Shown here one piece after another: positions 45,419-56,717 of a stretch of 64,000 nucleotides of DNA; the first letter of the stretch is position 1; the number at the start of each line of letters is the position of its first letter. The stretch lies in the NCBI GenBank assembly GCA_030525245.1, contig JAUNFB010000003.1:8424-72423 (forward strand). Direction: 5' to 3'. The translations under genes and the position numbers were made by a program. The notes beneath the pieces are model-generated. The model had not been told where the DNA came from. It did no database searches and saw only the letters and a list, made by a program, of their open reading frames with translations. Source of the stretch: Erysipelotrichia bacterium (GTDB taxonomy: Bacteria; Bacillota_I; Bacilli_A; Erysipelotrichales; Erysipelotrichaceae).

Positions 45419-45480
45419 AAGTAATGGTATCTTTAAAAGTACCGGCAAAATTTAATTTTATTCTAAGAAAGGGAAAAGTC

Positions 45481-46530
45481 ATGAAAAAGTTATTTACATT
45501 GTTATTAGTAGTTTGCATGATGCTTTCTTTTACAGGATGCCAAAAGGAATCTGATAAAGAAGCTGAATACAAATTAGGTATGGGCGTTGTAACATCTTTG
45601 GAATCAAGCAAAGACGGACAAGCTCAAGTTGATGCTACAGTTGCTGCTGTTGTTGTTGACGCAGAAGGCAAGATTGTTGCATGTAAGATTGATGTTGCTC
45701 AAAATAAAGTTCCTACAACTGATGGTGTTATTGATTTAACACAAGAATTCAAAACTAAGATGGAATTGGGCGATGATTACAACATGGTAAAATACAGCGA
45801 AGCTACTAAAGAGTGGTATGAACAAGCTAACAACTTCGCTAATTATTGTGTAGGTAAGACTGCTGAAGAAGTTAAAAATACTGAAACAAAATCAAGAGAT
45901 GACGGATTACATGAAGGCTATATCGTTGCCGCAGATCCTGAATTATTTGCTCAATGCTCTATGCAAATCACTGACTTTATCGAAGCAGTAGTTAAGGCTT
46001 GCAATGATGAACAGGCTTCTTCATTCAAAACTGCTGGTGAATTTAAGTTAGGTGTTGCTGCTAATTCTGAAATCAATGAAGGCAATACAAAAGACGCTAC
46101 TGAAGAAGAAGACGGCGTTGTTGCTATTTACTCTGAATTTGCTGCTACAGTAGTTGATGCTGACGGCAAGATTTTAGCTGCAGTTATTGATGAAATTCAA
46201 CCTAAGGTTCACTTTGATGTTGACGGTGCTATTACTGAAAAAGAATTCAAAGCAACTAAGAGAGAATTAAAAGAAGACTACAACATGGTTAAATACAGTG
46301 AGGCTACTAAAGAATGGTATGAACAAGCTAAGAACTTTGCTGATTACTGTGTAGGTAAGACTGCTGATGAAGTATTGGCAATTGAAACAAAGGTTAGAGC
46401 TGATGGATTACATGATGGCTATGTTGTTGCTGCTGATGAAACATTATTTGCTTCTTGCTCAATCCAAATTACAGGTATGATGGCTGTTGTAGCTGAAGCA
46501 GCTAACTATGCTGTTAAACCTCTTCATTAA
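45481..46530 (+). CDS. Lipoprotein built from two tandem ~165-aa homologous domains
   Basis: MKKLFTLLLVVCMMLSFTGC lipobox. An internal duplication includes a near-identical block DYNMVKYSEATKEWYEQA.NFA.YCVGKTA.EV. Confidence 0.7.
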   Translation: MKKLFTLLLVVCMMLSFTGCQKESDKEAEYKLGMGVVTSLESSKDGQAQVDATVAAVVVDAEGKIVACKIDVAQNKVPTTDGVIDLTQEFKTKMELGDDYNMVKYSEATKEWYEQANNFANYCVGKTAEEVKNTETKSRDDGLHEGYIVAADPELFAQCSMQITDFIEAVVKACNDEQASSFKTAGEFKLGVAANSEINEGNTKDATEEEDGVVAIYSEFAATVVDADGKILAAVIDEIQPKVHFDVDGAITEKEFKATKRELKEDYNMVKYSEATKEWYEQAKNFADYCVGKTADEVLAIETKVRADGLHDGYVVAADETLFASCSIQITGMMAVVAEAANYAVKPLH

Positions 46531-46566: not shown

Positions 46567-47628
46567 GTGAATAAGATTATGATTTTCCTGAAAAGGTATT
46601 TGTGCGTATTGTTAATCGGATGCTTGGTTTTGGCAGGCTGTCAGAAAGAAACAAAACGTGATAAACCGATTGGGAAAGTCAGCTATGCTTATTTCGATAC
46701 AGTCTCCTATATTTATGATTATGCCAACGACACTGATGAAGAATTTGATAAATTCTCTTCCGAAGTCTTTGGCATTTTAGACTATTATCACCAATTGTTT
46801 GATATTTACAATTACTATGAGAATGTTAATAATCTTTATGTTATCAATTCTAAGGCTGGTATTGAACCGGTAAAGGTTGATAGAGAGCTTATTGATTTCT
46901 TGCTTTATTGTAAAGAGTTATATAATTTGACTGCCGGTAAAATGAATGTGATGATGGGGGCTGTTTTGTCAATTTGGCACGACCATAGGCAAACAGCAAT
47001 GGATAATCCTTCGTTGGCTACTGTTCCCGATATGGAACAATTACAGCAAGCGGCTCAACACATTTCAATAGACTCTTTGGTTATTGATGAAGCTGCCGGT
47101 ACTGTTTATATTGCGGACTGTCTTGCCCGTATTGATGTCGGAGCAATCGGCAAAGGCTATGCGACGGAAAAAGCGGCACAATATTTAAAAGAAAACAAGA
47201 AAGACGGTTATGTATTAAACATTGGCGGTAATATAAGAATTATAGGCAATAAACCGGATGGCAGTAAATGGACAACAGGAATCAAAAACCCTAATGATCC
47301 GGATGAAAATTTTCCGATAAAAATATCCATAGCGAATACATCTTGTGTAACATCGGGAATTTATGAAAGATATTATACTGTTAATAAAGTACGCTATCAT
47401 CATATTATAGATGAAGATACCCTGATGCCGGCAAATTATTTTTCATCAGTTTCTGTCATAACCGAAAACAGTGCTTTGGCTGATGCTTTGTCAACTGCTT
47501 TGTTTTGCATGAGCAAAGAAGACGGAGAGAAGGTTATCGCCAAGATCGGTAATGTTGATGTTATATGGATATATGCCGACGGTACGGTTGAGTATACCGA
47601 AAATGTAAAAAATTTTATAGTTTATTGA
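46567..47628 (+). CDS. apbE: ApbE-family FAD:protein FMN transferase (lipoprotein)
   Basis: Lipobox VLAGC and DVGAIGKGYATEKA. ApbE length. Confidence 0.85.
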   Translation: MNKIMIFLKRYLCVLLIGCLVLAGCQKETKRDKPIGKVSYAYFDTVSYIYDYANDTDEEFDKFSSEVFGILDYYHQLFDIYNYYENVNNLYVINSKAGIEPVKVDRELIDFLLYCKELYNLTAGKMNVMMGAVLSIWHDHRQTAMDNPSLATVPDMEQLQQAAQHISIDSLVIDEAAGTVYIADCLARIDVGAIGKGYATEKAAQYLKENKKDGYVLNIGGNIRIIGNKPDGSKWTTGIKNPNDPDENFPIKISIANTSCVTSGIYERYYTVNKVRYHHIIDEDTLMPANYFSSVSVITENSALADALSTALFCMSKEDGEKVIAKIGNVDVIWIYADGTVEYTENVKNFIVY

Positions 47629-47650: not shown

Positions 47651-48970
47651 ATGTCAATTAGAAAAAATGTTTCTAAGTTAAAATTGCCTCACAACAAGCA
47701 TACGGCTGAAATGCATTCTACCGTAGCTCTTCCACCAAAGGAAGTATGGCTGCCGATGAGTATGCATTCCGGAAAAGATGCTGTTCCTGTTGTTGAGGTA
47801 GGAGACTATGTGCGTGTAGGGCAATTGATTGCTAGAGAAGAGGGCAACATTTCATCACCTGTGCATGCGACAGTTTCCGGAACGGTCAGTGCTATTGAAC
47901 CGATTAAGTCAATGGGCAAAGAAGTATTGGCAATTAAGATTGTCAGCGATGGCAAGATGGAGAAAGACCCAAATTTGAAAGCACCGGAAGTAAATGATGT
48001 TGACCAATTTTTACAGGCTGTTCGTGACAGCGGTATAGTCGGTTTGGGTGGCGCTGCTTTCCCTACTTGGGCAAAGTTAGCTGCATGTAAGAAGAGTAAG
48101 ATTCATACTTTCTTGATCAATGGTGCGGAATGTGAACCTTATTTAACCAGTGATACCAGAACAATGGTTGAAGACGGTGAATATATCGCTAAAGGTATTG
48201 AATACTTGAGAAAGTATGTTGGTTCTGAGAAGTTTGTTATCGGTATTGAAAAAAATAAGCAGGAAGCCATCAAATTGTTAGAAGAACGTTTCCAAAACGA
48301 TAACACGGTAAAAGTAGAAGAGTTGGACAGTATTTACCCACAAGGTGCGAAACAAGTCCTTTTATATAATGTTACCGGAATGGTTCAAAAACCGGGAACC
48401 AGACTTGCCGATTTGGGAGTATTGATTATAAATGTTACTTCTTTGGCTAAGTTAGCAAAATATATGGAAGACGGTATGCCGTTGGTTGACAGATGCGTAA
48501 CTGTAGACGGTTCGGCTGTTAAAGAGCCAAACAACTTCGTTGTTCCTATCGGAACTCCGATCAGTTATTTGTTTGAACTTGCCGGCGGTTTCAAAGAGGA
48601 ACCAGGAAAAGTTATTATCGGCGGTCCGATGATGGGACATGCTGTAGAAGATTTAAATGAACCGGTTGTTAAAGCAACAGGCGGTGTTTTGGCATTTAAT
48701 GTTAAAGAGGCAAAGGTTTATGAGCCGACGGCTTGCATTCATTGCGGACGCTGTGTTGATAATTGCCCGTTGTCTTTAAATCCGACAGAATATGCCAGAG
48801 CAATGGAAATGAGTGATGATCAAGAAAAATTAGCTCTGTTGAAAAAAGAACAAGTAACATTGTGTATGCAATGCGGATGTTGCTCTTATGTATGTCCTGC
48901 TCATCGTCCATTGGTTCAAACCAATGTTGAGGCCATTGCTTTTGTTAAAAAGAACAGAGCTCCGAGATAG
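47651..48970 (+). CDS. rnfC: Rnf complex subunit C
   Basis: GLGGAAFPT, INGAECEPYLTSD and two ferredoxin motifs, CIHCGRCVDNCP and CMQCGCCSYVCP. Confidence 0.9.
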   Translation: MSIRKNVSKLKLPHNKHTAEMHSTVALPPKEVWLPMSMHSGKDAVPVVEVGDYVRVGQLIAREEGNISSPVHATVSGTVSAIEPIKSMGKEVLAIKIVSDGKMEKDPNLKAPEVNDVDQFLQAVRDSGIVGLGGAAFPTWAKLAACKKSKIHTFLINGAECEPYLTSDTRTMVEDGEYIAKGIEYLRKYVGSEKFVIGIEKNKQEAIKLLEERFQNDNTVKVEELDSIYPQGAKQVLLYNVTGMVQKPGTRLADLGVLIINVTSLAKLAKYMEDGMPLVDRCVTVDGSAVKEPNNFVVPIGTPISYLFELAGGFKEEPGKVIIGGPMMGHAVEDLNEPVVKATGGVLAFNVKEAKVYEPTACIHCGRCVDNCPLSLNPTEYARAMEMSDDQEKLALLKKEQVTLCMQCGCCSYVCPAHRPLVQTNVEAIAFVKKNRAPR

Positions 48971-48988: not shown

Positions 48989-49924
48989 ATGTCTAAATTA
49001 ACTGTATCTGCTGCTCCGCATATTCATGATGGTGCCAGCAGTAAAAATATCATGCTTGACGTAGTTATTGCTTTATTGCCTGTTTCGGTTGCCGCTGTTG
49101 TGATTTTCGGAATGAAGGCTTTAGCAATCATCTTGACTTGTATTATCAGCAGTGTATTGTCTGAATATTTATTTAACAGTATTACTAAACAAAAACAGAC
49201 AATCGGTGATTTCAGTGCTGTTGTTACAGGTCTGCTATTGGCTTTGAATTTATCTACCAATGTTGCTTTGTGGCAATGCGTAGTTGGTTCGGTATTTGCG
49301 ATTGTTGTCGTTAAATGTTTCTTTGGCGGTTTGGGTAAAAACTTTGCTAATCCGGCAATCACCGCTCGTGTATTTATGCTTTTGGCGTTTTCATCGGTAG
49401 CCGGTGGAGCAAATCCGGTTATCGGTGCCGAATTGACCTCTTCAGCAACACCATTGGAGTTGATTAAAAACGGTCAAGAATTGCCTTCAATGATGAATAT
49501 GCTTTTAGGTGTTCACGGCGGAGCAATCGGTGAAACTTGCATTATTGCTTTAGTTGTCGGATATATCTATTTGGTTGTCAGAAAAGTCATCAAATGGTAT
49601 GTGCCTTTCAGCTTTATCGCTACTGTATTTGTTTTAAGTTTTGTAAGCAAGTTTGACTTGTCTTATGCTTTATATGAGATTTTATCAGGCGGTTTATTTA
49701 TCGGAGCAATCTTTATGGCTACCGACTATGTAACTACACCGATAACCAATAAGGGCAAAGTAGTATTTGCGATTGGTTGTGGTTTGATAACTTTCGCTGT
49801 TCGCGTGTTCTTCTCATATCCGGAAGGCGTATCGTTCTCAATTTTATGTATGAACTTATTAACTCCTTATATCGAAGAATTAACGCACAAACATCCGTTA
49901 GGAGGTGTGGAAAATGTCAAATAA
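48989..49924 (+). CDS. rnfD: Rnf complex subunit D
   Basis: SAAPHIH N-terminus, polytopic, with the flavinylation-type motif TSSATPLE. Confidence 0.9.
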   Translation: MSKLTVSAAPHIHDGASSKNIMLDVVIALLPVSVAAVVIFGMKALAIILTCIISSVLSEYLFNSITKQKQTIGDFSAVVTGLLLALNLSTNVALWQCVVGSVFAIVVVKCFFGGLGKNFANPAITARVFMLLAFSSVAGGANPVIGAELTSSATPLELIKNGQELPSMMNMLLGVHGGAIGETCIIALVVGYIYLVVRKVIKWYVPFSFIATVFVLSFVSKFDLSYALYEILSGGLFIGAIFMATDYVTTPITNKGKVVFAIGCGLITFAVRVFFSYPEGVSFSILCMNLLTPYIEELTHKHPLGGVENVK

Positions 49925-51167
49925 ATTAAAAGTTTCCGCAATTTTGGTAGTTACGATTGCTATTCTGTTTGCCAGCAATTTAATTACCAAACCATTAATT
50001 GAAAAAAATAATGCTTCTGCAAAATTTGAACCGTTGCTGGAGGTTATGAGCGATGCTAAAGACTTTGAAGTACTTTATGATGTAAATGATAAAGAAAACA
50101 GTCAATTAACTGATGTTGCCGATACTGTTGTCGGTGTATATAAGGAAACTTCCGGATTGGGTTATGTTGTGCTGTTGTCAACAACTCAAGGATATACGCA
50201 TGAACCTATTAATTTCACCGTTGCATTCAGTTCTGAAGGAATTATCACCAATATTGCTTTGACGAATTATCCGGAATCAAAAGATTTCGGAAAGAATACA
50301 TATCCTCAAACTTATATCGGCCAGGATTCAACTCTTGCCGGTGTAAGCATTGTTGCCGGAGTTACTTTCTCATCAAGCGCATTTAAGAATGCTACATTGG
50401 ATGCTTTTAATGTATTAACAGCTAACAATTTGGTTGAAGCCGGTAAGATGAGTGATGATCAAGCACTTACACAATTGTTGGTTACAGTCTTTACTTCTAT
50501 GGCTAATCCGCAAGGTGTTGCTCAATATGAAGAAAGCGAAATAAGTGAAGGTACATTGTTTAAAGCCTTTAAAGCATTAAATGATGGTGGATATGCATTC
50601 TTGGCAAAAGAGGATGATACAACGACAATGGCGTTGGTTAATAATGACGGATGCGTTAAAGTTGTTGATATCGAGGGCAATGATGTTACCGAAGCCCACA
50701 GTCAAGTTGTAGCCGATGCTTTGAGTTATGTTAATGATAAGCTTGCCGGAGCAGCAAAGAAAGAAGTTAAGAAATTAAGTAAACTTGCCGATAATGCTGA
50801 ATTAACTGAAATAGTTATGAACGGTGTTTATAATTCGGTAGTAAAGGCTTATTCGACTTCTGCCGGAGATTACGGATTTATTGTTAAGACATATGGTTAC
50901 AGCAATCAAGTAATGACTTCATATTATTTAATAGATGCTAGCGGAAATATTAAAGCGATGACTGTTGATGAAATTATTTTACAAAAAGAATATTTTGACA
51001 GTTACACATTGGATGAAGATTCTTATAAGAGCGGATTTGTTGGACAGAACAGTTCTACTTATACTTCTGATGTCGCTTTGATTTCCGGAGCTACAATGAG
51101 TACGAATGCTATCGATATGGCAACAAAAGATGCCTTGGCAGCATTTGCGATTATTAAAGGAGAATAG
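49914..51167 (+). CDS. rnfG: RnfG-like subunit, double length (two FMN_bind-like modules)
   Basis: TM anchor. Module 1 ends ..VAGVTFSSSAF and module 2 ends ..ISGATMSTNAI. The ATG at 49914 lies 8 nt after GGAGG. Confidence 0.8.
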   Translation: MSNKLKVSAILVVTIAILFASNLITKPLIEKNNASAKFEPLLEVMSDAKDFEVLYDVNDKENSQLTDVADTVVGVYKETSGLGYVVLLSTTQGYTHEPINFTVAFSSEGIITNIALTNYPESKDFGKNTYPQTYIGQDSTLAGVSIVAGVTFSSSAFKNATLDAFNVLTANNLVEAGKMSDDQALTQLLVTVFTSMANPQGVAQYEESEISEGTLFKAFKALNDGGYAFLAKEDDTTTMALVNNDGCVKVVDIEGNDVTEAHSQVVADALSYVNDKLAGAAKKEVKKLSKLADNAELTEIVMNGVYNSVVKAYSTSAGDYGFIVKTYGYSNQVMTSYYLIDASGNIKAMTVDEIILQKEYFDSYTLDEDSYKSGFVGQNSSTYTSDVALISGATMSTNAIDMATKDALAAFAIIKGE

Positions 51168-51169
51168 TT

Positions 51170-51814
51170 ATGGATAGTAAATTAGAAAAATCAATAATGA
51201 ATAATCCTGTATTTATCCTGTTTTTAGCCACAGCAGTAGTAGTCGGATCAACAGCTACTGTAAAAGGCGCATTGACAATGTCAATAAGTGTCTTGGCAGT
51301 ATTAGTTTTATCTGCATTGTTGTTGACATTATTAAATAAGGTGATAACCGATGACATCAGATTCATTTCCACGGTTATTATTGTTGCCGGAACAGCATCG
51401 TTGGTACAAATGTTAATGAATGCTTTCTTGCCTGCAGGATATAAAATGGTTAGTTTATATTTAGCTGTCTTGGCAGTTGACTTATCTGTTTTCGCTAATT
51501 GTAAGGATGTTAAAAACGATTCGACAGCTGTTGCTTTGAAGAAGAGTTTTAAAACCGGATTGTACTATGCTGTTGTTATCTTAGTATTGGCATTATTTAG
51601 AGAAGCATTCGGTATGGGCAGTATTTATGGACATGCTTTACCTTGGTTGAGCGAAAATACTATTGCGGTTTTATCGACTGCTCCGGGCGGATATATGCTG
51701 TTGGCGTTTGTGATGGCTTTCTGCAATAAAGGCGAAAAGTCGACAGAAAAATTATCAACAGTATTAACTGATGAATGTACATGTAAATGTGCATGTGAAA
51801 AAGAAGGAGAATAA
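51170..51814 (+). CDS. rnfE: RnfE-like subunit (divergent, Cys-rich C-terminal tail)
   Basis: Collinear by eye with RnfE/NqrD (NNP....GSTAT.., SLVQMLMNAF, APGGYMLLAF). The tail is TDECTCKCACEKEGE. Confidence 0.75.
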   Translation: MDSKLEKSIMNNPVFILFLATAVVVGSTATVKGALTMSISVLAVLVLSALLLTLLNKVITDDIRFISTVIIVAGTASLVQMLMNAFLPAGYKMVSLYLAVLAVDLSVFANCKDVKNDSTAVALKKSFKTGLYYAVVILVLALFREAFGMGSIYGHALPWLSENTIAVLSTAPGGYMLLAFVMAFCNKGEKSTEKLSTVLTDECTCKCACEKEGE

Positions 51815-51816
51815 CT

Positions 51817-52350
51817 ATGAAAGAATTATTTACTCTTTTAATCGGTTCGGCTTTAGTAAATAATGTAGTGCTGACCAAAGCATGTGGTTTAACTAATGCA
51901 ATTGACAGTTCAAACAACAAAAAAATCTTGAATGACGGCATTTATACCGGAATTGTAATGCTGTTATCGGCAGTTATTTGCTGGGCTTTACAATTATATG
52001 TTATAGATAAACTTTCTATCGGTTATTTACAGACATTGATATATGTTTTGATTAATGTAGCTGTTGCTTATCTGTTTAAGGGATTGTTAAAGAAAAATTG
52101 TGTCGAATTTATGTTGGCAGCATTAAACAGTGCAGTATTATTGGTTTGTTTGAATAATGTAAGTTACACTTTTGGACAGATGGTGTTTGCTACTGTCGGC
52201 AGTGCGTTAGGCTTATTAGTCGCAATGTATCTTTATGCCGGTGCTGTTCATAAAATCAATAACAATCATATTTTGAAGTCATTTAGAGGATTGCCTATTC
52301 AAATCTTGGCTATGGCAATTGTTACATTAGCTGTATTTGCTTTTAAATAA
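51817..52350 (+). CDS. rnfA: RnfA-like subunit (divergent)
   Basis: Collinear by eye with RnfA/NqrE (ALVNNVVLTK.., ..LNSAVLLV.., FRGLPIQILAMAI). Confidence 0.75.
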   Translation: MKELFTLLIGSALVNNVVLTKACGLTNAIDSSNNKKILNDGIYTGIVMLLSAVICWALQLYVIDKLSIGYLQTLIYVLINVAVAYLFKGLLKKNCVEFMLAALNSAVLLVCLNNVSYTFGQMVFATVGSALGLLVAMYLYAGAVHKINNNHILKSFRGLPIQILAMAIVTLAVFAFK

Positions 52351-52706
52351 TGTTTAAGAAAAAAGCTGATTTTATTCTGATAATAACTTTGATTTTACTG
52401 GCTTTAGGCAGTTATTTGATATGCACTATACCTAATGGTGAACCTGATAAGGTAGTCGTAAGGGTTGATGGTGAAATAACCGATGTCTTCCTTTTGGAAG
52501 AAGACGGTACATACTCATTGAGTAACGGAACTAATATATTGGTTATTGAAGACGGTAAAGCTTGGTTAGAAGATGCGGATTGTCCCGATAAGTTGTGTGT
52601 TAAACAGGGAAAAATAAGTAAGGTAAATCAATGTATTACTTGCTTACCAAATAAGTTGACAGTTACGATTGAGGGAAAAAACAGTGATGTTGATTTGATT
52701 AATTAA
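52350..52706 (+). CDS. NusG-domain-II-like small membrane-anchored protein
   Basis: N-terminal TM helix followed by a beta-rich domain with CPDKLC...C.TCLP. The start overlaps the rnfA stop (TAATG). Confidence 0.6.
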   Translation: MFKKKADFILIITLILLALGSYLICTIPNGEPDKVVVRVDGEITDVFLLEEDGTYSLSNGTNILVIEDGKAWLEDADCPDKLCVKQGKISKVNQCITCLPNKLTVTIEGKNSDVDLIN

Positions 52707-52728
52707 ATTTGAAAGGAAGGTTTTGACT

Positions 52729-53214
52729 ATGAAAAATAAGAACTTTGCCACATTATCTTTGCTGATTGCTTTGGCAATGATCTTATCTTTTGTGGAAAGT
52801 CAAATTCCTTCCTTTTTTCCTATTCCGGGAATCAAAATGGGTTTGGCCAATATAGCCGTCGTATTTGCTTTATATAAATTATCCATAAAAGATGCCATAA
52901 TTGTTTCTGTTACCAGAGTCATTATTGTTTCGTTTTTATTCGGTACAAGCGTAACCTTAATTTATTCGATTAGCGGTGCCGTTTTGAGTATGATTGTGAT
53001 GGCTTTGATGCAGAAAAGCGAACGTTTTTCTTTAGTATCGGTAAGTATAGCCGGAGGGGTTACGCATAATATAGCTCAAGTGATCGTAGCCTGTATACTT
53101 TTGAAGAGTGCGGTTATTCGCTATTATTTGCCTTTTTTGATAATTAGCGGAATGTTGACCGGAGTAGTGATCGGTTTGATCAGTGCCAAATTAATTGAAA
53201 GAATAAAAAAATAA
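52729..53214 (+). CDS. Gx transporter family (Hpre_diP_synt_I-like) membrane protein
   Basis: FVESQIPSFFPIPGIKMGLANIAV.. is the characteristic N-terminal motif. 5 TM helices. Confidence 0.7.
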   Translation: MKNKNFATLSLLIALAMILSFVESQIPSFFPIPGIKMGLANIAVVFALYKLSIKDAIIVSVTRVIIVSFLFGTSVTLIYSISGAVLSMIVMALMQKSERFSLVSVSIAGGVTHNIAQVIVACILLKSAVIRYYLPFLIISGMLTGVVIGLISAKLIERIKK

Positions 53215-53229
53215 TAAATCGGAGTCGAT

Positions 53230-54309
53230 ATGTCAATTATAAAGATGAAAAAGATGACCGTTCAATGTCCCGAGGTCATCGAAAGAATAAAAGATATAAA
53301 GGGAGTCTATACGCAAAAAGGTGTTGAAAACACTGTTTTTTTTGTAGCTAAGTTGCAGAAACAACTGACAGATCTATTGGATAAAGAGAATTGTCAATAT
53401 ACAATAACCGATATAGAAGAAGTTGATCATCCCACAGTTATGTTAAATAATTGTCAGTTCATTCGACCTTTTGGTTCACTTTTAACAAATCATGCTTTAC
53501 CTTTGTACGGTGATTTGGATCCGACAGGCTTTTATGCGATTTGTTTCTGTATTTTGTTCGGAGTAATGTTCGGAGATATCGGGCAAGGATTCATATTAAT
53601 CTTGATCGGTTTAATCTTTCGTAAAAAGGATAATTTTGCGGTGTTCAGCAGAGTAGGTATATTTTCGATGATTTTTGGTTGGCTTTACGGTTCGATATTC
53701 GGCAATGAAGAAATCATCGGCGAATGGATGCAAGAACATAGATTAGCCTATTGGCGTTTCGGTTTGTTGGAAAGAAAGAACACGGAAATATTATTATTGG
53801 TTGTTGCTGCAATCGGAATAGCGATGATTATGGCTGCGGTTGTAATTAATATTATTGATAAGGCTCATCATCATAAACAGAAAGAAATCTTAACCGCTAA
53901 TAATTGTTTACCGGCATTGATGTTTTATATGATGTTATTGCTTTTGAGCGGACAGGTTTTAGGTAAGGCAAAGGGGAAATTCACTTTAGTTTTAGCGTTT
54001 TTATTGGCTTTGGCTAATGCTGCCTTATTGTTGAAACAAGGAAAGTGGAAATATTTAACCGGTTCGATAATAAAATATTTCAGTGCCATCATGGCCTTTT
54101 TGCAAGTTGGCTGTTTTGCTTTGGCGCATGCCTTTTTGATGTATATTGTTTATTATATTGCGGGTCTGATTCCTGATATTTCCGTTATTATAATAATCGC
54201 AGGAAATGCTATTGTGATGGCGATTGAGGCAACAGAGGTATGGCATCAATGCAGTCATTTGATTTTGTCTACTTTACACGGTTTCATTACCGATAAAGAG
54301 GAACACTAA
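53230..54309 (+). CDS. Orphan, half-size V-type ATPase subunit-I/a-like membrane protein
   Basis: IRPFGSLLTNHALPLYGDLDPTGFYAICFCILFGVMFGDIGQGF matches the hallmark subunit-I block. Only 359 aa, and no other V-ATPase genes are nearby. Confidence 0.55.
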   Translation: MSIIKMKKMTVQCPEVIERIKDIKGVYTQKGVENTVFFVAKLQKQLTDLLDKENCQYTITDIEEVDHPTVMLNNCQFIRPFGSLLTNHALPLYGDLDPTGFYAICFCILFGVMFGDIGQGFILILIGLIFRKKDNFAVFSRVGIFSMIFGWLYGSIFGNEEIIGEWMQEHRLAYWRFGLLERKNTEILLLVVAAIGIAMIMAAVVINIIDKAHHHKQKEILTANNCLPALMFYMMLLLLSGQVLGKAKGKFTLVLAFLLALANAALLLKQGKWKYLTGSIIKYFSAIMAFLQVGCFALAHAFLMYIVYYIAGLIPDISVIIIIAGNAIVMAIEATEVWHQCSHLILSTLHGFITDKEEH

Positions 54310-54420: not shown

Positions 54421-55323
54421 ATGTTGTTGGACATGTACAAGATAGTTGAAGTTGAACATTTGTCTGAAAAGAACTGGTTGATGAAAATCGAAGCGCCTTT
54501 TATTACACGCAGTTGTCAACCGGGTCAATTTTTAATTGTCAAAACTGGTGAATTGGGAGAAAGAATTCCGTTGACAATTTGTGATTATGACAGAGAAAAA
54601 GGATTGGTAACAATCGTGTTCCAGACAGTAGGAGCATCTACAACTAAAATGAGCGAATTAAAAGCCGGTGATAGTTTTACGGATGTTGTCGGACCATTAG
54701 GTAAACCGTCAGAATTCGTTCATGAAGATTTGGAAGAATTAAAGAAGAAGAGTTATCTGTTTGTTTGCGGCGGTGTCGGAATTGCACCTGTTTATCCGCA
54801 GGTTAAGTGGCTTTCTGAACATGGCGTAAAAGCTGATGTCATTATGGCAGCAAGAAGCAAAGATTTGATTTTCTATGAAAAAGAAATGCGTTCAGTTGCC
54901 GACAATGTTTATATCACTACCGATGACGGTTCATATGGTATGAAAGGTGTCGGTACCGATATGGTTAAACATTTAGTAAATGAAGAAGGCAAGCATTATG
55001 ATCAATGTGTTGCAATCGGACCAATCATTATGATGAAGTTTACTTCTTTATGCACTAAAGAATTAGGTATTCCGACAATCGTATCAATGAATCCGATTAT
55101 GATTGATGGTACAGGTATGTGTGGGGCTTGCCGTTTAATTGTTGACGGTCAGGTTAAGTTTGCTTGTGTTGACGGTCCTGAATTTGATGGACATAAAGTT
55201 GATTACGATTTAGCAATGAAGCGTGCCAGATTGTATAAAGATGAAGAAACAAGAGCAATGTTAAAACTTGAAGAAGGCGAAACTCATCACGGTGGATGCG
55301 GTTTCTGTTCAAGCGAAAAGTAG
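54421..55323 (+). CDS. nfnA: NfnA-type (PyrK-like) FAD/[2Fe-2S] subunit of ferredoxin:NADP oxidoreductase
   Basis: FNR-like fold (RIPLTICD, VCGGVGIAP) and the C-terminal cluster motif GTGMCGACRL..C. The start is ambiguous (54421 to 54433). Confidence 0.8.
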   Translation: MLLDMYKIVEVEHLSEKNWLMKIEAPFITRSCQPGQFLIVKTGELGERIPLTICDYDREKGLVTIVFQTVGASTTKMSELKAGDSFTDVVGPLGKPSEFVHEDLEELKKKSYLFVCGGVGIAPVYPQVKWLSEHGVKADVIMAARSKDLIFYEKEMRSVADNVYITTDDGSYGMKGVGTDMVKHLVNEEGKHYDQCVAIGPIIMMKFTSLCTKELGIPTIVSMNPIMIDGTGMCGACRLIVDGQVKFACVDGPEFDGHKVDYDLAMKRARLYKDEETRAMLKLEEGETHHGGCGFCSSEK

Positions 55324-55334
55324 GAGGCTGTATT

Positions 55335-56717
55335 ATGGATGTAACTAAAAAAGTACCGGTAAGAGAACAAGATCCTAAAGTAAGAGCAACTAATTTTGAA
55401 GAAGTTTGTTTGGGATATAATGAAGAGGAAGCAACTGCTGAAGCAAGCCGTTGTTTAAATTGTCGTAATCCTTTATGTCAAAAGGGTTGTCCAGTATCAA
55501 TTAATATTCCTGCTTTTATTCATGAATTGAAGAGCGGAAATGTTCAGGCTGCTGCAGATATTATTGCTCAGCAATCGGCATTACCGGCTATTTGCGGACG
55601 TGTTTGTCCTCAAGAAACTCAATGTGAAGGTAAATGTATCAGAGGTATCAAAGGAGAATCTGTTTCTATCGGTAAGTTAGAAAGATATGTTGCTGATTGG
55701 TGTAGAGAACATGGTTATCAAGCTGATAAAGCCGGAACTCCTAACGGTAAGAAAGTTGCTGTTATCGGTTCAGGTCCTGCCGGATTAACATGTGCCGGAG
55801 ACTTGGCTAAGATGGGTTATGATGTAACTATCTTTGAAGCATTCCACGAAGCAGGCGGTGTATTGGTATATGGTATCCCTGAATTCCGTTTACCTAAAGA
55901 TACAGTTGTTAAGTCAACAATTGAAAATGTTAAAAAATTAGGTGTTAAATTGGATACAAATGTTATTGTCGGCCGTTCAATCACCATCGATGAATTGTTA
56001 AACGAACAAGGCTTTGATGCCGTATTCATCGGAACAGGTGCCGGATTACCTAAGTTCATGAACATTCCTGGCGAAATCGCTAACGGAGTATTCTCGGCAA
56101 ATGAATTCTTAACCAGAAATAACTTGATGAAAGCATTCAGAGAAGATGCCGATACGCCTATTAAGTGCGGTAAGAAAGTTGTTGTTGTCGGCGGCGGTAA
56201 CGTAGCAATGGATGCTGCCAGAACTGCATTACGTTTGGGTGCCGAAGTACATGTAGTATATCGTCGTGGTGAGGAAGAATTACCTGCTCGTAAAGAAGAG
56301 GTACATCATGCTAAAGAAGAAGGAATTATTTTCGATTTATTACAAAACCCTGTTGAAATCTTAGCAGATGAAAACGACTGGGTTAAGGGTATCAAAGTCA
56401 TTAAGATGGAATTGGGTGAACCTGATGCTTCAGGCAGAAGAAGACCGGTAGAAATTCCTGGTTCAGAATATGTAATTGACTGCGATACAGTTATTATGTC
56501 GTTAGGAACTTCTCCTAACCCATTAATTTCTTCGACAACTGCCGGATTAGAAACCAACAAACATGGTTGTATCATCGCTAAAGAAGAAGACGGTGAAACT
56601 ACTAAGGTCGGTGTATATGCCGGTGGTGATGCCGTTACAGGTGCAGCAACTGTTATCTTGGCAATGGGTGCCGGAAAGGCAGCTGCCAAGGGTATTGACG
56701 AATACTTAAATAAATAA
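55335..56717 (+). CDS. nfnB: NfnB-type (GltD-like) subunit
   Basis: CLNCRNPLCQKGCP, CGRVCPQETQCEGKC, VAVIGSGPAGL and VVVVGGGNVAMD. The ATG at 55335 lies after GGAGG. Confidence 0.85.
   Translation: MDVTKKVPVREQDPKVRATNFEEVCLGYNEEEATAEASRCLNCRNPLCQKGCPVSINIPAFIHELKSGNVQAAADIIAQQSALPAICGRVCPQETQCEGKCIRGIKGESVSIGKLERYVADWCREHGYQADKAGTPNGKKVAVIGSGPAGLTCAGDLAKMGYDVTIFEAFHEAGGVLVYGIPEFRLPKDTVVKSTIENVKKLGVKLDTNVIVGRSITIDELLNEQGFDAVFIGTGAGLPKFMNIPGEIANGVFSANEFLTRNNLMKAFREDADTPIKCGKKVVVVGGGNVAMDAARTALRLGAEVHVVYRRGEEELPARKEEVHHAKEEGIIFDLLQNPVEILADENDWVKGIKVIKMELGEPDASGRRRPVEIPGSEYVIDCDTVIMSLGTSPNPLISSTTAGLETNKHGCIIAKEEDGETTKVGVYAGGDAVTGAATVILAMGAGKAAAKGIDEYLNK

Follow-up and report, generated by a model that had tools for sequence, protein, structure and literature searches.

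The subject of this analysis is a gene module related to the Rnf complex that lies in a 64-kb window (the whole stretch of DNA analyzed, 64,000 nucleotides of contig JAUNFB010000003.1) from a metagenome-assembled genome (MAG) of an Erysipelotrichia bacterium. The RnfE-like and RnfA-like proteins of this module, designated E' and A' here, have none of the four cysteines that hold the intramembrane iron-sulfur cluster of canonical Rnf complexes. As judged from sequence comparisons, the Cys-less trait belongs to a large monophyletic family and is not a peculiarity of the window operon. A reading that is rather probable, if some way from certain, is that the module represents a clade-wide Rnf derivative (a "half-Rnf") in which the ferredoxin-side path has been lost and the NADH side, consisting of RnfC, RnfD, and a duplicated RnfG, has been kept. 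It is a widespread Rnf branch of gut bacteria, in which electrons probably pass only between NADH and flavoproteins outside the cell.

Cluster ligands and conservation of E' and A'

In canonical Rnf and Nqr complexes, each of four inner half-helices contributes one Cys to the intramembrane [2Fe-2S] cluster, and, according to a 2025 review of both systems, conservation is strict for the core cofactors and exceptional for the RnfA-E pair (PMC12174285). The ligand columns were located with phmmer alignments to solved Rnf and Nqr chains and with MAFFT multiple alignments, and the column numbering was checked on Vibrio cholerae NqrD (C29 and C112). In E', Ala22 (nt 51233-51235) aligns with the Cys of LGMCP and Leu105 (nt 51482-51484) with the Cys of VVNC, while in A' the Cys of LGICP is matched by Thr26 (nt 51892-51894) and that of TTNC by Ser105 (nt 52129-52131). 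The first-pass annotation of the window had suggested that both RnfE-like motifs have their Cys replaced, that the Cys of the first RnfA-like motif is displaced by three positions, and that the Cys of the second is changed to Ser, and it had proposed a profile or structure alignment of the four ligand columns. That alignment bears out each of these substitutions, as zero of the four columns hold Cys in the window proteins. C111 of E' stands six residues after the second E' column, and C23 of A' three residues before the first A' column.

Both proteins pass the Pfam threshold for Rnf-Nqr, PF02508 (86.0 bits for E' and 46.9 bits for A', with a cutoff of 23.8), and both miss the curated NCBIfam cutoffs for RnfE (TIGR01948, 83.8 bits versus 213.4) and RnfA (TIGR01943, 73.4 bits versus 229.3). 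In the NCBI records of the Erysipelotrichia MAG, E' is named "Rnf-Nqr domain containing protein" (MDO4377767.1) and A' is a "hypothetical protein." A homologue of 93% identity (P0001) keeps the same features and the substitutions are found family-wide, so chance or sequencing error can be excluded as their origin.

The same gene order (lipoprotein, ApbE, RnfC, RnfD, two-domain RnfG, E', and A') was found in 21 other distinct loci, where genes for a NusG_II-domain protein and an EetB-like protein usually complete the module after A'. The related loci used for comparison comprise two metagenome contigs, 17 GTDB species representatives, and one distant locus (L001, L003, L007-L023, and L024) and derive mostly from gut and rumen Bacillota MAGs. 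The GTDB loci belong to Oscillospiraceae, Ruminococcaceae, Lachnospiraceae, Ca. Limivicinus, unclassified Clostridia/Clostridiales and Bacillota, and one member of the Sphaerochaetaceae (L016). Across 20 species the first E column holds Cys in 12, Val in four, Ala in two, and Thr in two, and the second holds Leu in 17 and Ala in three and is never Cys. The first A column is Thr in 12 species, Gly in three, Asp in two, and Cys, Ala, and Glu in one each, and the second, never Cys either, is Ser in 14, Gly in four, and Thr in two. Among 140 representatives of clusters at 90% identity, the second E column is Leu in 137 and Ile, Met, or Pro in the others (Cys in 0/140). As to the question raised with the annotation, whether rnfB-less operons generally carry the same substitutions, three columns are non-Cys in nearly the entire clade, and the first E column is mostly still Cys.

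A profile search of a collection of 5.8 billion proteins returned 560 matches at an E value of 1e-8 or lower, the best 120 of which score between 276 and 304 bits, and hundreds of 90%-identity clusters are present in public data. When 1.84 billion representatives at 50% identity were searched exhaustively with HMMER, the second E Cys was missing in 63 of the best 150 sequences. In a neighbor-joining tree, 55 of 60 sequences that lack this Cys form one pure clade that includes the window protein and adjoins clostridial RnfE. This branching indicates a single old loss of the cysteine followed by broad diversification. Within the literature open to searching, no description of an RnfB-less Rnf complex or of a Cys-less RnfA/E was found.

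The ratio of nonsynonymous to synonymous substitution rates (dN/dS) of E' and A' lies between 0.06 and 0.36 in nine locus pairs, similar to that of the neighboring module genes, and thus the two genes are maintained and not decaying. Intact E' and A' open reading frames (ORFs) are present in every related locus examined. The fold of E' was modeled with AlphaFold2 (AF2) at only moderate confidence (a mean predicted local distance difference test score, or pLDDT, of 65, with the tail below 50). Its best structural matches are Acetobacterium woodii RnfE (9eri_E, TM-scores of 0.68/0.73) and NqrD (0.62-0.68), and the model confirms, at that level of confidence, a six-helix RnfE/NqrD fold. Positive-inside counts give an N-in/C-in topology for E' and N-out/C-out for A', which match the known inverted arrangement of RnfE and RnfA (PMC12174285).

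The two proteins diverge faster than their partners, with identities across the family of 31-42% for E' and A' versus 56-69% for RnfC and RnfD. Between window E' and clostridial RnfE the identity is 24-25%, lower than the 39% of A. woodii RnfE to V. cholerae NqrD. The SFxD Asp (the D133 column of NqrD) and the VQxxE Glu of RnfA have been linked to Na+ uptake by mutagenesis of NQR. Each is invariant in the canonical references, and each is Lys in the window proteins and variable in the family.

The first-pass annotation had also drawn attention to four cysteines within seven residues at the C-terminus of the RnfE-like protein. This tail is real (nt 51767-51811), its cysteines being residues 203, 205, 207, and 209 (CTCKCAC), and it lies on the cytoplasmic side. 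Canonical RnfE stops just past the sixth transmembrane helix, and the clade adds a cytoplasmic extension of 10-35 residues. The window tail is predicted to be disordered (AF2 pLDDT <50) and far from the mid-membrane site. Its cysteine content varies widely: the last 35 residues of E' hold no Cys in 18 of the 140 representatives, one in 59, and six to eight in 48. A C.?C.?C pattern occurs in the last 22 residues of 54/140, and 22 of those 54 also have an N-terminal Cys pair. The tail cannot stand in for the mid-membrane center and is dispensable in much of the family. It appears to be a lineage-variable cytoplasmic appendage on the face where RnfB would dock, possibly one that binds metal. An E-C-x-C-x-C motif near the C-terminus is common to the window clade (CTCKCAC, CPC, CCC) and the deep clade of L001 (CRCDC, CCCC). 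Because it is common to a second deep clade, the motif is probably functional, though not as a replacement of the membrane cluster.

In the deep sub-clade represented by L001:8001-9208 and L011:6290-7479, three cytoplasmic segments are Cys-rich together, namely the E' N-terminus (NCVCN/NNCC), the E' tail with up to eight Cys (e.g., PCCGNEGCSSVTCKAVGMGECRCDC), and the first cytoplasmic loop of A' (KCPCKC/KCTCKC). The composition of these segments suggests that this lineage has a common metal site facing the cytoplasm.

The extreme C-terminus of E' is conserved as KEGE, NKEA, EKEVQE, or QEGE. In 19 of 20 loci, the Lys-Glu codons at this end spell AAGGAG, 7-12 nt upstream of the A' gene. A protein-level role for the acidic end (KEGE, KEA, EVQE) was considered and rejected, as the embedded AAGGAG explains the conservation. 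The last residues of E' are conserved because the ribosome-binding site of the A' gene lies in their codons, and it is thus a translation signal that imposes conservation at the protein level.

RnfB and the retained NADH side

A search of contig neighborhoods detected no RnfB-like gene in the 64-kb window or in the flanks (up to 10 kb) of L001-L023. RnfC is the sole ORF with CxxCxxCxxxC ferredoxin motifs in these regions, and the gene order of the related loci, including L024, shows no extra gene. The window contains no second canonical RnfA/E pair and no further Rnf-Nqr ORF. Since RnfB and the cluster that accepts its electrons are absent from the same loci, the two losses go together.

The E' and A' genes sit in a co-directional, tightly packed string of nine genes that runs from a lipoprotein to a PF07456 protein (Table 1). 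The NADH side of this module appears canonical. Both 4Fe-4S motifs of RnfC (CIHCGRCVDNC and CMQCGCCSYVC in the window) are kept in all loci, and the protein has the Pfam domains Complex1_51K, RnfC_N, and SLBB. In RnfD, the context of the flavinylation threonine, TSSATPL, aligns with VTTATPL of Clostridium tetanomorphum RnfD (7zc6_D, 279 bits).

Table 1. Coordinates of the module genes and of the signals within them (nt of the window)
Feature	Position	Strand	Remarks
Lipoprotein with two ~150-aa repeats	45481..46530	+	First module gene; ORF opens at 45424, likely start MKK at 45481; lipobox LSFTGC
ApbE flavin transferase (lipoprotein)	46567..47628	+	Pfam PF02424, 214 bits; syntenic in all related loci
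RnfC, apparently canonical, NADH/FMN module	47651..48970	+	TIGR01945, 411.7 bits (cutoff 245.95)
RnfD, apparently canonical, 311 aa	48989..49924	+	TIGR01946, 278.4 bits (cutoff 207)
RnfG-like protein, 420 aa, membrane anchor and two FMN_bind domains	49905..51167	+	Pfam FMN_bind, two stretches
RnfE-like E', 214 aa	51170..51814	+	Ala22 and Leu105 in Cys ligand columns; N-in/C-in
E' C-terminal tail TDECTCKCACEKEGE, residues 200-214	51767..51811	+	Cytoplasmic; none in canonical RnfE
Shine-Dalgarno sequence AAGGAG of the A' gene	51804..51809	+	Inside the last E' codons (K-E)
RnfA-like A', 177 aa	51817..52350	+	Thr26 and Ser105 in Cys ligand columns; N-out/C-out
NusG_II-domain protein, membrane-anchored	52350..52706	+	Pfam PF07009, 103 bits
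EetB-like ECF S-component	52723..53214	+	Pfam PF07456, 146 bits

The RnfG-like protein scores only 27 bits against TIGR01947 (cutoff 102). Its two FMN_bind domains (FMN, flavin mononucleotide) were aligned to 9eri_G and 7zc6_G. Domain 2 has the canonical SGAT, with ISGATMS aligned to ITGATIT of 7zc6_G. The protein is a duplication, with homology between domain 1 and domain 2 (hhalign 97%). In domain 1 (residues ~150-165), VAGVT[YF]SS replaces [ST]GA[ST] in all 20 species, with the Thr in register with that of domain 2. VAGVT may be a variant target motif of ApbE.

The lipoprotein heads the module in 19 of 21 related loci, and the remaining two loci are cut at a contig end. Its repeats are homologous to each other (hhalign 100%), and it matches no Pfam family even at E=10. 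When compared with the RnfG domains by hhalign, the lipoprotein gives a weak local match (37% and <1% probability) that is not significant. Most species have two of the ~150-aa repeats, and the Sphaerochaetaceae protein (L016:1631-4582, 983 aa) has about six. At the end of every repeat stands a conserved DExL[FY]-A-x-C-[ST]-[MI]-x-I, where an FMN_bind domain would carry SGAT, and from its position the A-x-C-[ST] motif may be a non-canonical flavinylation site.

The module is always accompanied by ApbE and usually by the repeat lipoprotein and a homologue of an S-component that exports flavin adenine dinucleotide (FAD). PF07456 is the family of Listeria EetB, an energy-coupling factor (ECF) S-component that exports FAD for the ApbE homologue FmnB, and it has been reported to be co-localized with Rnf genes in 572 Clostridia genomes (PMC9973259). 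By analogy, the window PF07456 protein would export FAD to supply ApbE. In the distant locus (L024:10112-13767), a 151-aa ORF comes after the EetA-like and EetB-like genes, and next come an ABC ATPase, a CbiQ-type ECF-T, and a second ABC ATPase. With this gene set, the module would be accompanied by a full ECF flavin exporter. The presence of ApbE and PF07456, with ECF genes adjoining in L024, means that the module brings its own flavinylation supply line.

The NusG_II protein, which may correspond to EetA, has an N-terminal membrane anchor and a family-invariant pattern of four cysteines, CPDxxCV...GQxITCLPN. It is probably extracytosolic, and the four-Cys pattern has the look of an outward-facing knuckle of the zinc-ribbon or rubredoxin kind.

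Proposed electron path and alternative explanations

In the reading preferred here, NADH would be oxidized at RnfC, which would carry FMN and two 4Fe-4S clusters, and from RnfC electrons would reach the outer face by way of the flavins of RnfD and then the pair of flavins of RnfG. The RnfG flavins would in turn reduce the repeat lipoprotein and, through it, extracytosolic acceptors. The branch from ferredoxin through RnfB to the [2Fe-2S] cluster would be gone. E' and A' would conduct no electrons and would act as a cofactor-free scaffold keeping RnfD and RnfG together in the membrane, possibly as part of an ion path. Overall, the module would provide a quinone-independent means of disposing of NADH electrons outside the cell.

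Several points weigh against this proposal. The first E column is still Cys in 116 of the 140 family representatives (83%), and the window clade belongs to the minority without it. This single retained Cys is not accounted for by a pure scaffold model or by the other models considered. Gene content is the only guide to the direction in which electrons flow and to their terminal acceptor, no reductase or obvious acceptor gene was found in the window neighborhood, and the lipoprotein has no recognizable FMN_bind domain. The Cys-rich cytoplasmic segments, conserved within some sub-clades, hint at a further function. An rnfB gene or a second canonical rnf operon could also lie outside the contig neighborhoods.

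The first-pass annotation had left two alternatives, loss of the intramembrane cluster with A/E kept as remnants or re-ligation of the cluster by other residues. The former is supported by the non-Cys columns, the lack of RnfB nearby, and the purifying selection on E' and A', while the latter did not hold up. A cluster ligated by displaced cysteines (A' C23, E' C111, and A' C111) or by the CxCxCxC tail has in its favor that three of the four ligand columns have a cysteine 3-6 residues away in the window proteins, but it is very improbable in the light of the alignments of the nearest homologues and of the 20 species, on which re-ligation by displaced Cys was rejected. The KAC and ANC cysteines are missing in the nearest relatives (E' C111 from P0002-4 and A' C23 from P0035), the LVC cysteine is kept only in the three A' sequences of the window clade, and no Cys column is conserved across the family. 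Moreover, Leu, the residue of the second E column in nearly all representatives, cannot ligate iron, the tail is cytoplasmic and predicted to be disordered, and E' C111 and A' C111 are on opposite membrane faces, at the cytoplasmic and the outer end, respectively, of the fourth transmembrane helix. Still less credible is an ordinary ferredoxin:NAD+ Rnf complex with rnfB elsewhere in the genome. The search did cover contig neighborhoods and not whole genomes, but with the four ligands gone RnfB electrons have no known acceptor left, no related locus examined has rnfB beside the module, and E' and A' fall far under the RnfE and RnfA family cutoffs. That the E' and A' genes are in decay or are artefacts of assembly would fit their much faster divergence compared with RnfC and RnfD, yet it is hardly conceivable given the conserved translational coupling signals and the hundreds of 90%-identity clusters in public data, and a pseudogene or artefact was rejected on the basis of dN/dS and ORF integrity in every related locus examined, no frequent frameshifts or stop codons having been observed among the orthologues.

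Two further explanations, each unlikely though deserving more weight than those above, assign E' and A' a new function. The Cys-rich cytoplasmic segments could form a new metal or Fe-S site on the cytoplasmic face of E'/A' that replaces part of RnfB structurally or serves as a sensor. The segments in question are the E' tail, E' C185, and A' C95 in the window clade, together with NCVCN and KCPCKC in the L001 clade. All of them map to the cytoplasmic side, E-C-x-C-x-C is common to both clades, the C.?C.?C tail recurs in 54/140 representatives and is coupled to an N-terminal Cys pair in 22 of them, and L001 and L011 are Cys-rich on both subunits together. However, tails with no Cys (18/140) or a single one (59/140) indicate that such a site is not essential to the family, a cytoplasmic cluster would have no evident electron path to RnfG without the mid-membrane center, and the model confidence for the tail is very low. 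A comparably doubtful alternative is that E' and A' form a cofactor-free alternating-access cation path in which polar residues at the old cluster site (Asp/Asn before the second E column, Thr at the first A column, and Asn-Ser at the second A column) bind the ion. It is consistent with the presence of Asp (88) or Asn (51) directly before the second E column in 139/140 representatives, with Thr, Asn, and Ser/Thr at the corresponding A' positions across the 20 species, and with purifying selection on both proteins. In its architecture RnfA-E is similar to alternating-access symporters, and for A. woodii it has been proposed that Na+ passes through this pair (PMC12174285). The path is opposed by the loss of the acidic residues that never vary in canonical A and E. 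A combination of the two, in which A/E has turned into a cation path and some lineages have added a new Cys-rich metal site on the cytoplasmic side, would make the module an NADH-driven, ferredoxin- and quinone-independent ion-motive route that leads to extracellular acceptors, and it too is improbable.

The large and diverse clade (at least about 55 clusters at 50% identity, from gut and rumen Bacillota and a spirochaete) contradicts the strict conservation of core cofactors described for Rnf and Nqr (PMC12174285). Counting RnfC/RnfD-type genes as evidence of a ferredoxin:NAD+ pump would over-predict ferredoxin-linked energy conservation in uncultured gut organisms, and a survey keyed on RnfB, such as that of Méheust et al. 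(2021), would miss the module. For the physiology of these bacteria, the module suggests a quinone-free path from NADH to extracytosolic flavoproteins. Whether Na+ passes via RnfA-E or via RnfD is disputed (PMC12174285). Should the complex still move ions, the role of A-E versus RnfD would be separable from electron transfer, and a natural cluster-less A/E would directly test Na+ passage by one route or the other.

Comparison with known systems and neighboring genes

The closest relative of the module is the clostridial Rnf complex, represented by the structures from A. woodii (9ERI) and C. tetanomorphum (7ZC6). The two share RnfC and RnfD that pass family thresholds, an RnfG domain with SGAT, the Rnf-Nqr fold, the gene order C-D-G-E-A, the inverted topologies of E and A, and an association with ApbE and eetB. 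The module differs from the Rnf complex in that it has no RnfB nearby, lacks the four [2Fe-2S] cysteines, and has E' and A' proteins under the family thresholds. It also has a duplicated RnfG of 420 aa, a C-terminal extension of E', and a repeat lipoprotein at its head. Na+-NQR has a homologous membrane core (NqrB/C/D/E) and likewise no RnfB. However, the module genes, all of which have an assignment, include no counterpart of NqrF, the NADH-oxidizing input subunit with FAD and 2Fe-2S, a cofactor-bearing RnfC occupies the position of the cofactor-less NqrA, and NqrD and NqrE retain all four cysteines.

Other systems resemble the module in part. In two-subunit NQR/RNF-like systems, electrons have been proposed to move one way only, with NAD(P)H as the donor, an RnfD-like protein as the intermediate, and a flavinylated RnfG-like protein outside the cytosol as the recipient (PMC8238504, PMC10979944). 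These systems, like the proposed module path, use only one of the two transmembrane paths. In them, RnfD is fused to an NqrF-type NAD-binding domain (PF00175) and there is no RnfC, A, or E, whereas the module has RnfC, E', and A'. The sole Pfam match of the window RnfD is PF03116 (residues 5-304, at E values up to 0.01), with no NAD-binding domain. Méheust et al. (2021) described RNF clusters with multi-flavinylated RnfG that are proposed to feed extracytosolic acceptors (PMC8238504). The module similarly has an RnfG with more than one FMN-binding domain, but that class is defined by the presence of RnfB, so that the module falls outside it, and loss of the A/E cysteines is not reported there.

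Flavin-based extracellular electron transfer in Listeria (Ndh2, DmkA/B, EetA/B, FmnA/B, and PplA) has in common with the module an ApbE-type transferase, a PF07456 EetB homologue, a surface lipoprotein with two domains, and a presumed electron donor, NADH. The module, unlike the Listeria system, contains no Ndh2 or demethylmenaquinone genes, the membrane step would occur via RnfC/D/G, and its lipoprotein has no detectable FMN_bind domain. The "noncanonical Rnf" of Treponema pallidum (tp0147-tp0153) is described as an operon of Rnf type with recognizable RnfC and RnfD, an RnfE-like protein with ~30% identity, and otherwise unassignable membrane subunits (PMC4436053). It is likened to the module by its description only, and by that analogy it may be the same kind of system. 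The related Sphaerochaetaceae locus (L016) is also from a spirochaete.

Directly after the module in the window, a 359-aa ORF (53230-54309) matches only the C-terminal membrane half of V-type ATPase subunit I (positions 321-437 of the Pfam PF01496 profile and ~300 to 600 of the NCBIfam subunit I models). No homologue of this ORF was found at that position in the related loci. It is followed by a pair of PyrK-like and GltD-like genes (54421-56717, with DHODB_Fe-S_bind and with Fer4_20 and Pyr_redox_2) that has the architecture of NfnAB. The location of this pair next to an Rnf-like module is not conserved in other loci. Should the pair be NfnAB (NADH-dependent ferredoxin:NADP+ oxidoreductase), ferredoxin is indeed used by this organism.

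Another type of Cys-less system was encountered in the form of a trio of RnfD-like, E-like, and A-like genes (L005:6263-8612, the same genes in L006, and L025:6868-9150). These loci come from human gut (Hadza) contigs and one NCBI MAG, and no RnfC, RnfG, RnfB, or ApbE gene is present nearby in any of the three. The ligand motifs of the trio read ALGVSRL and LNS[CG]VLG in the A-like protein and GLAP and TVEP in the E-like protein. One cluster of the A-like protein (P0073) has 2317 member sequences.

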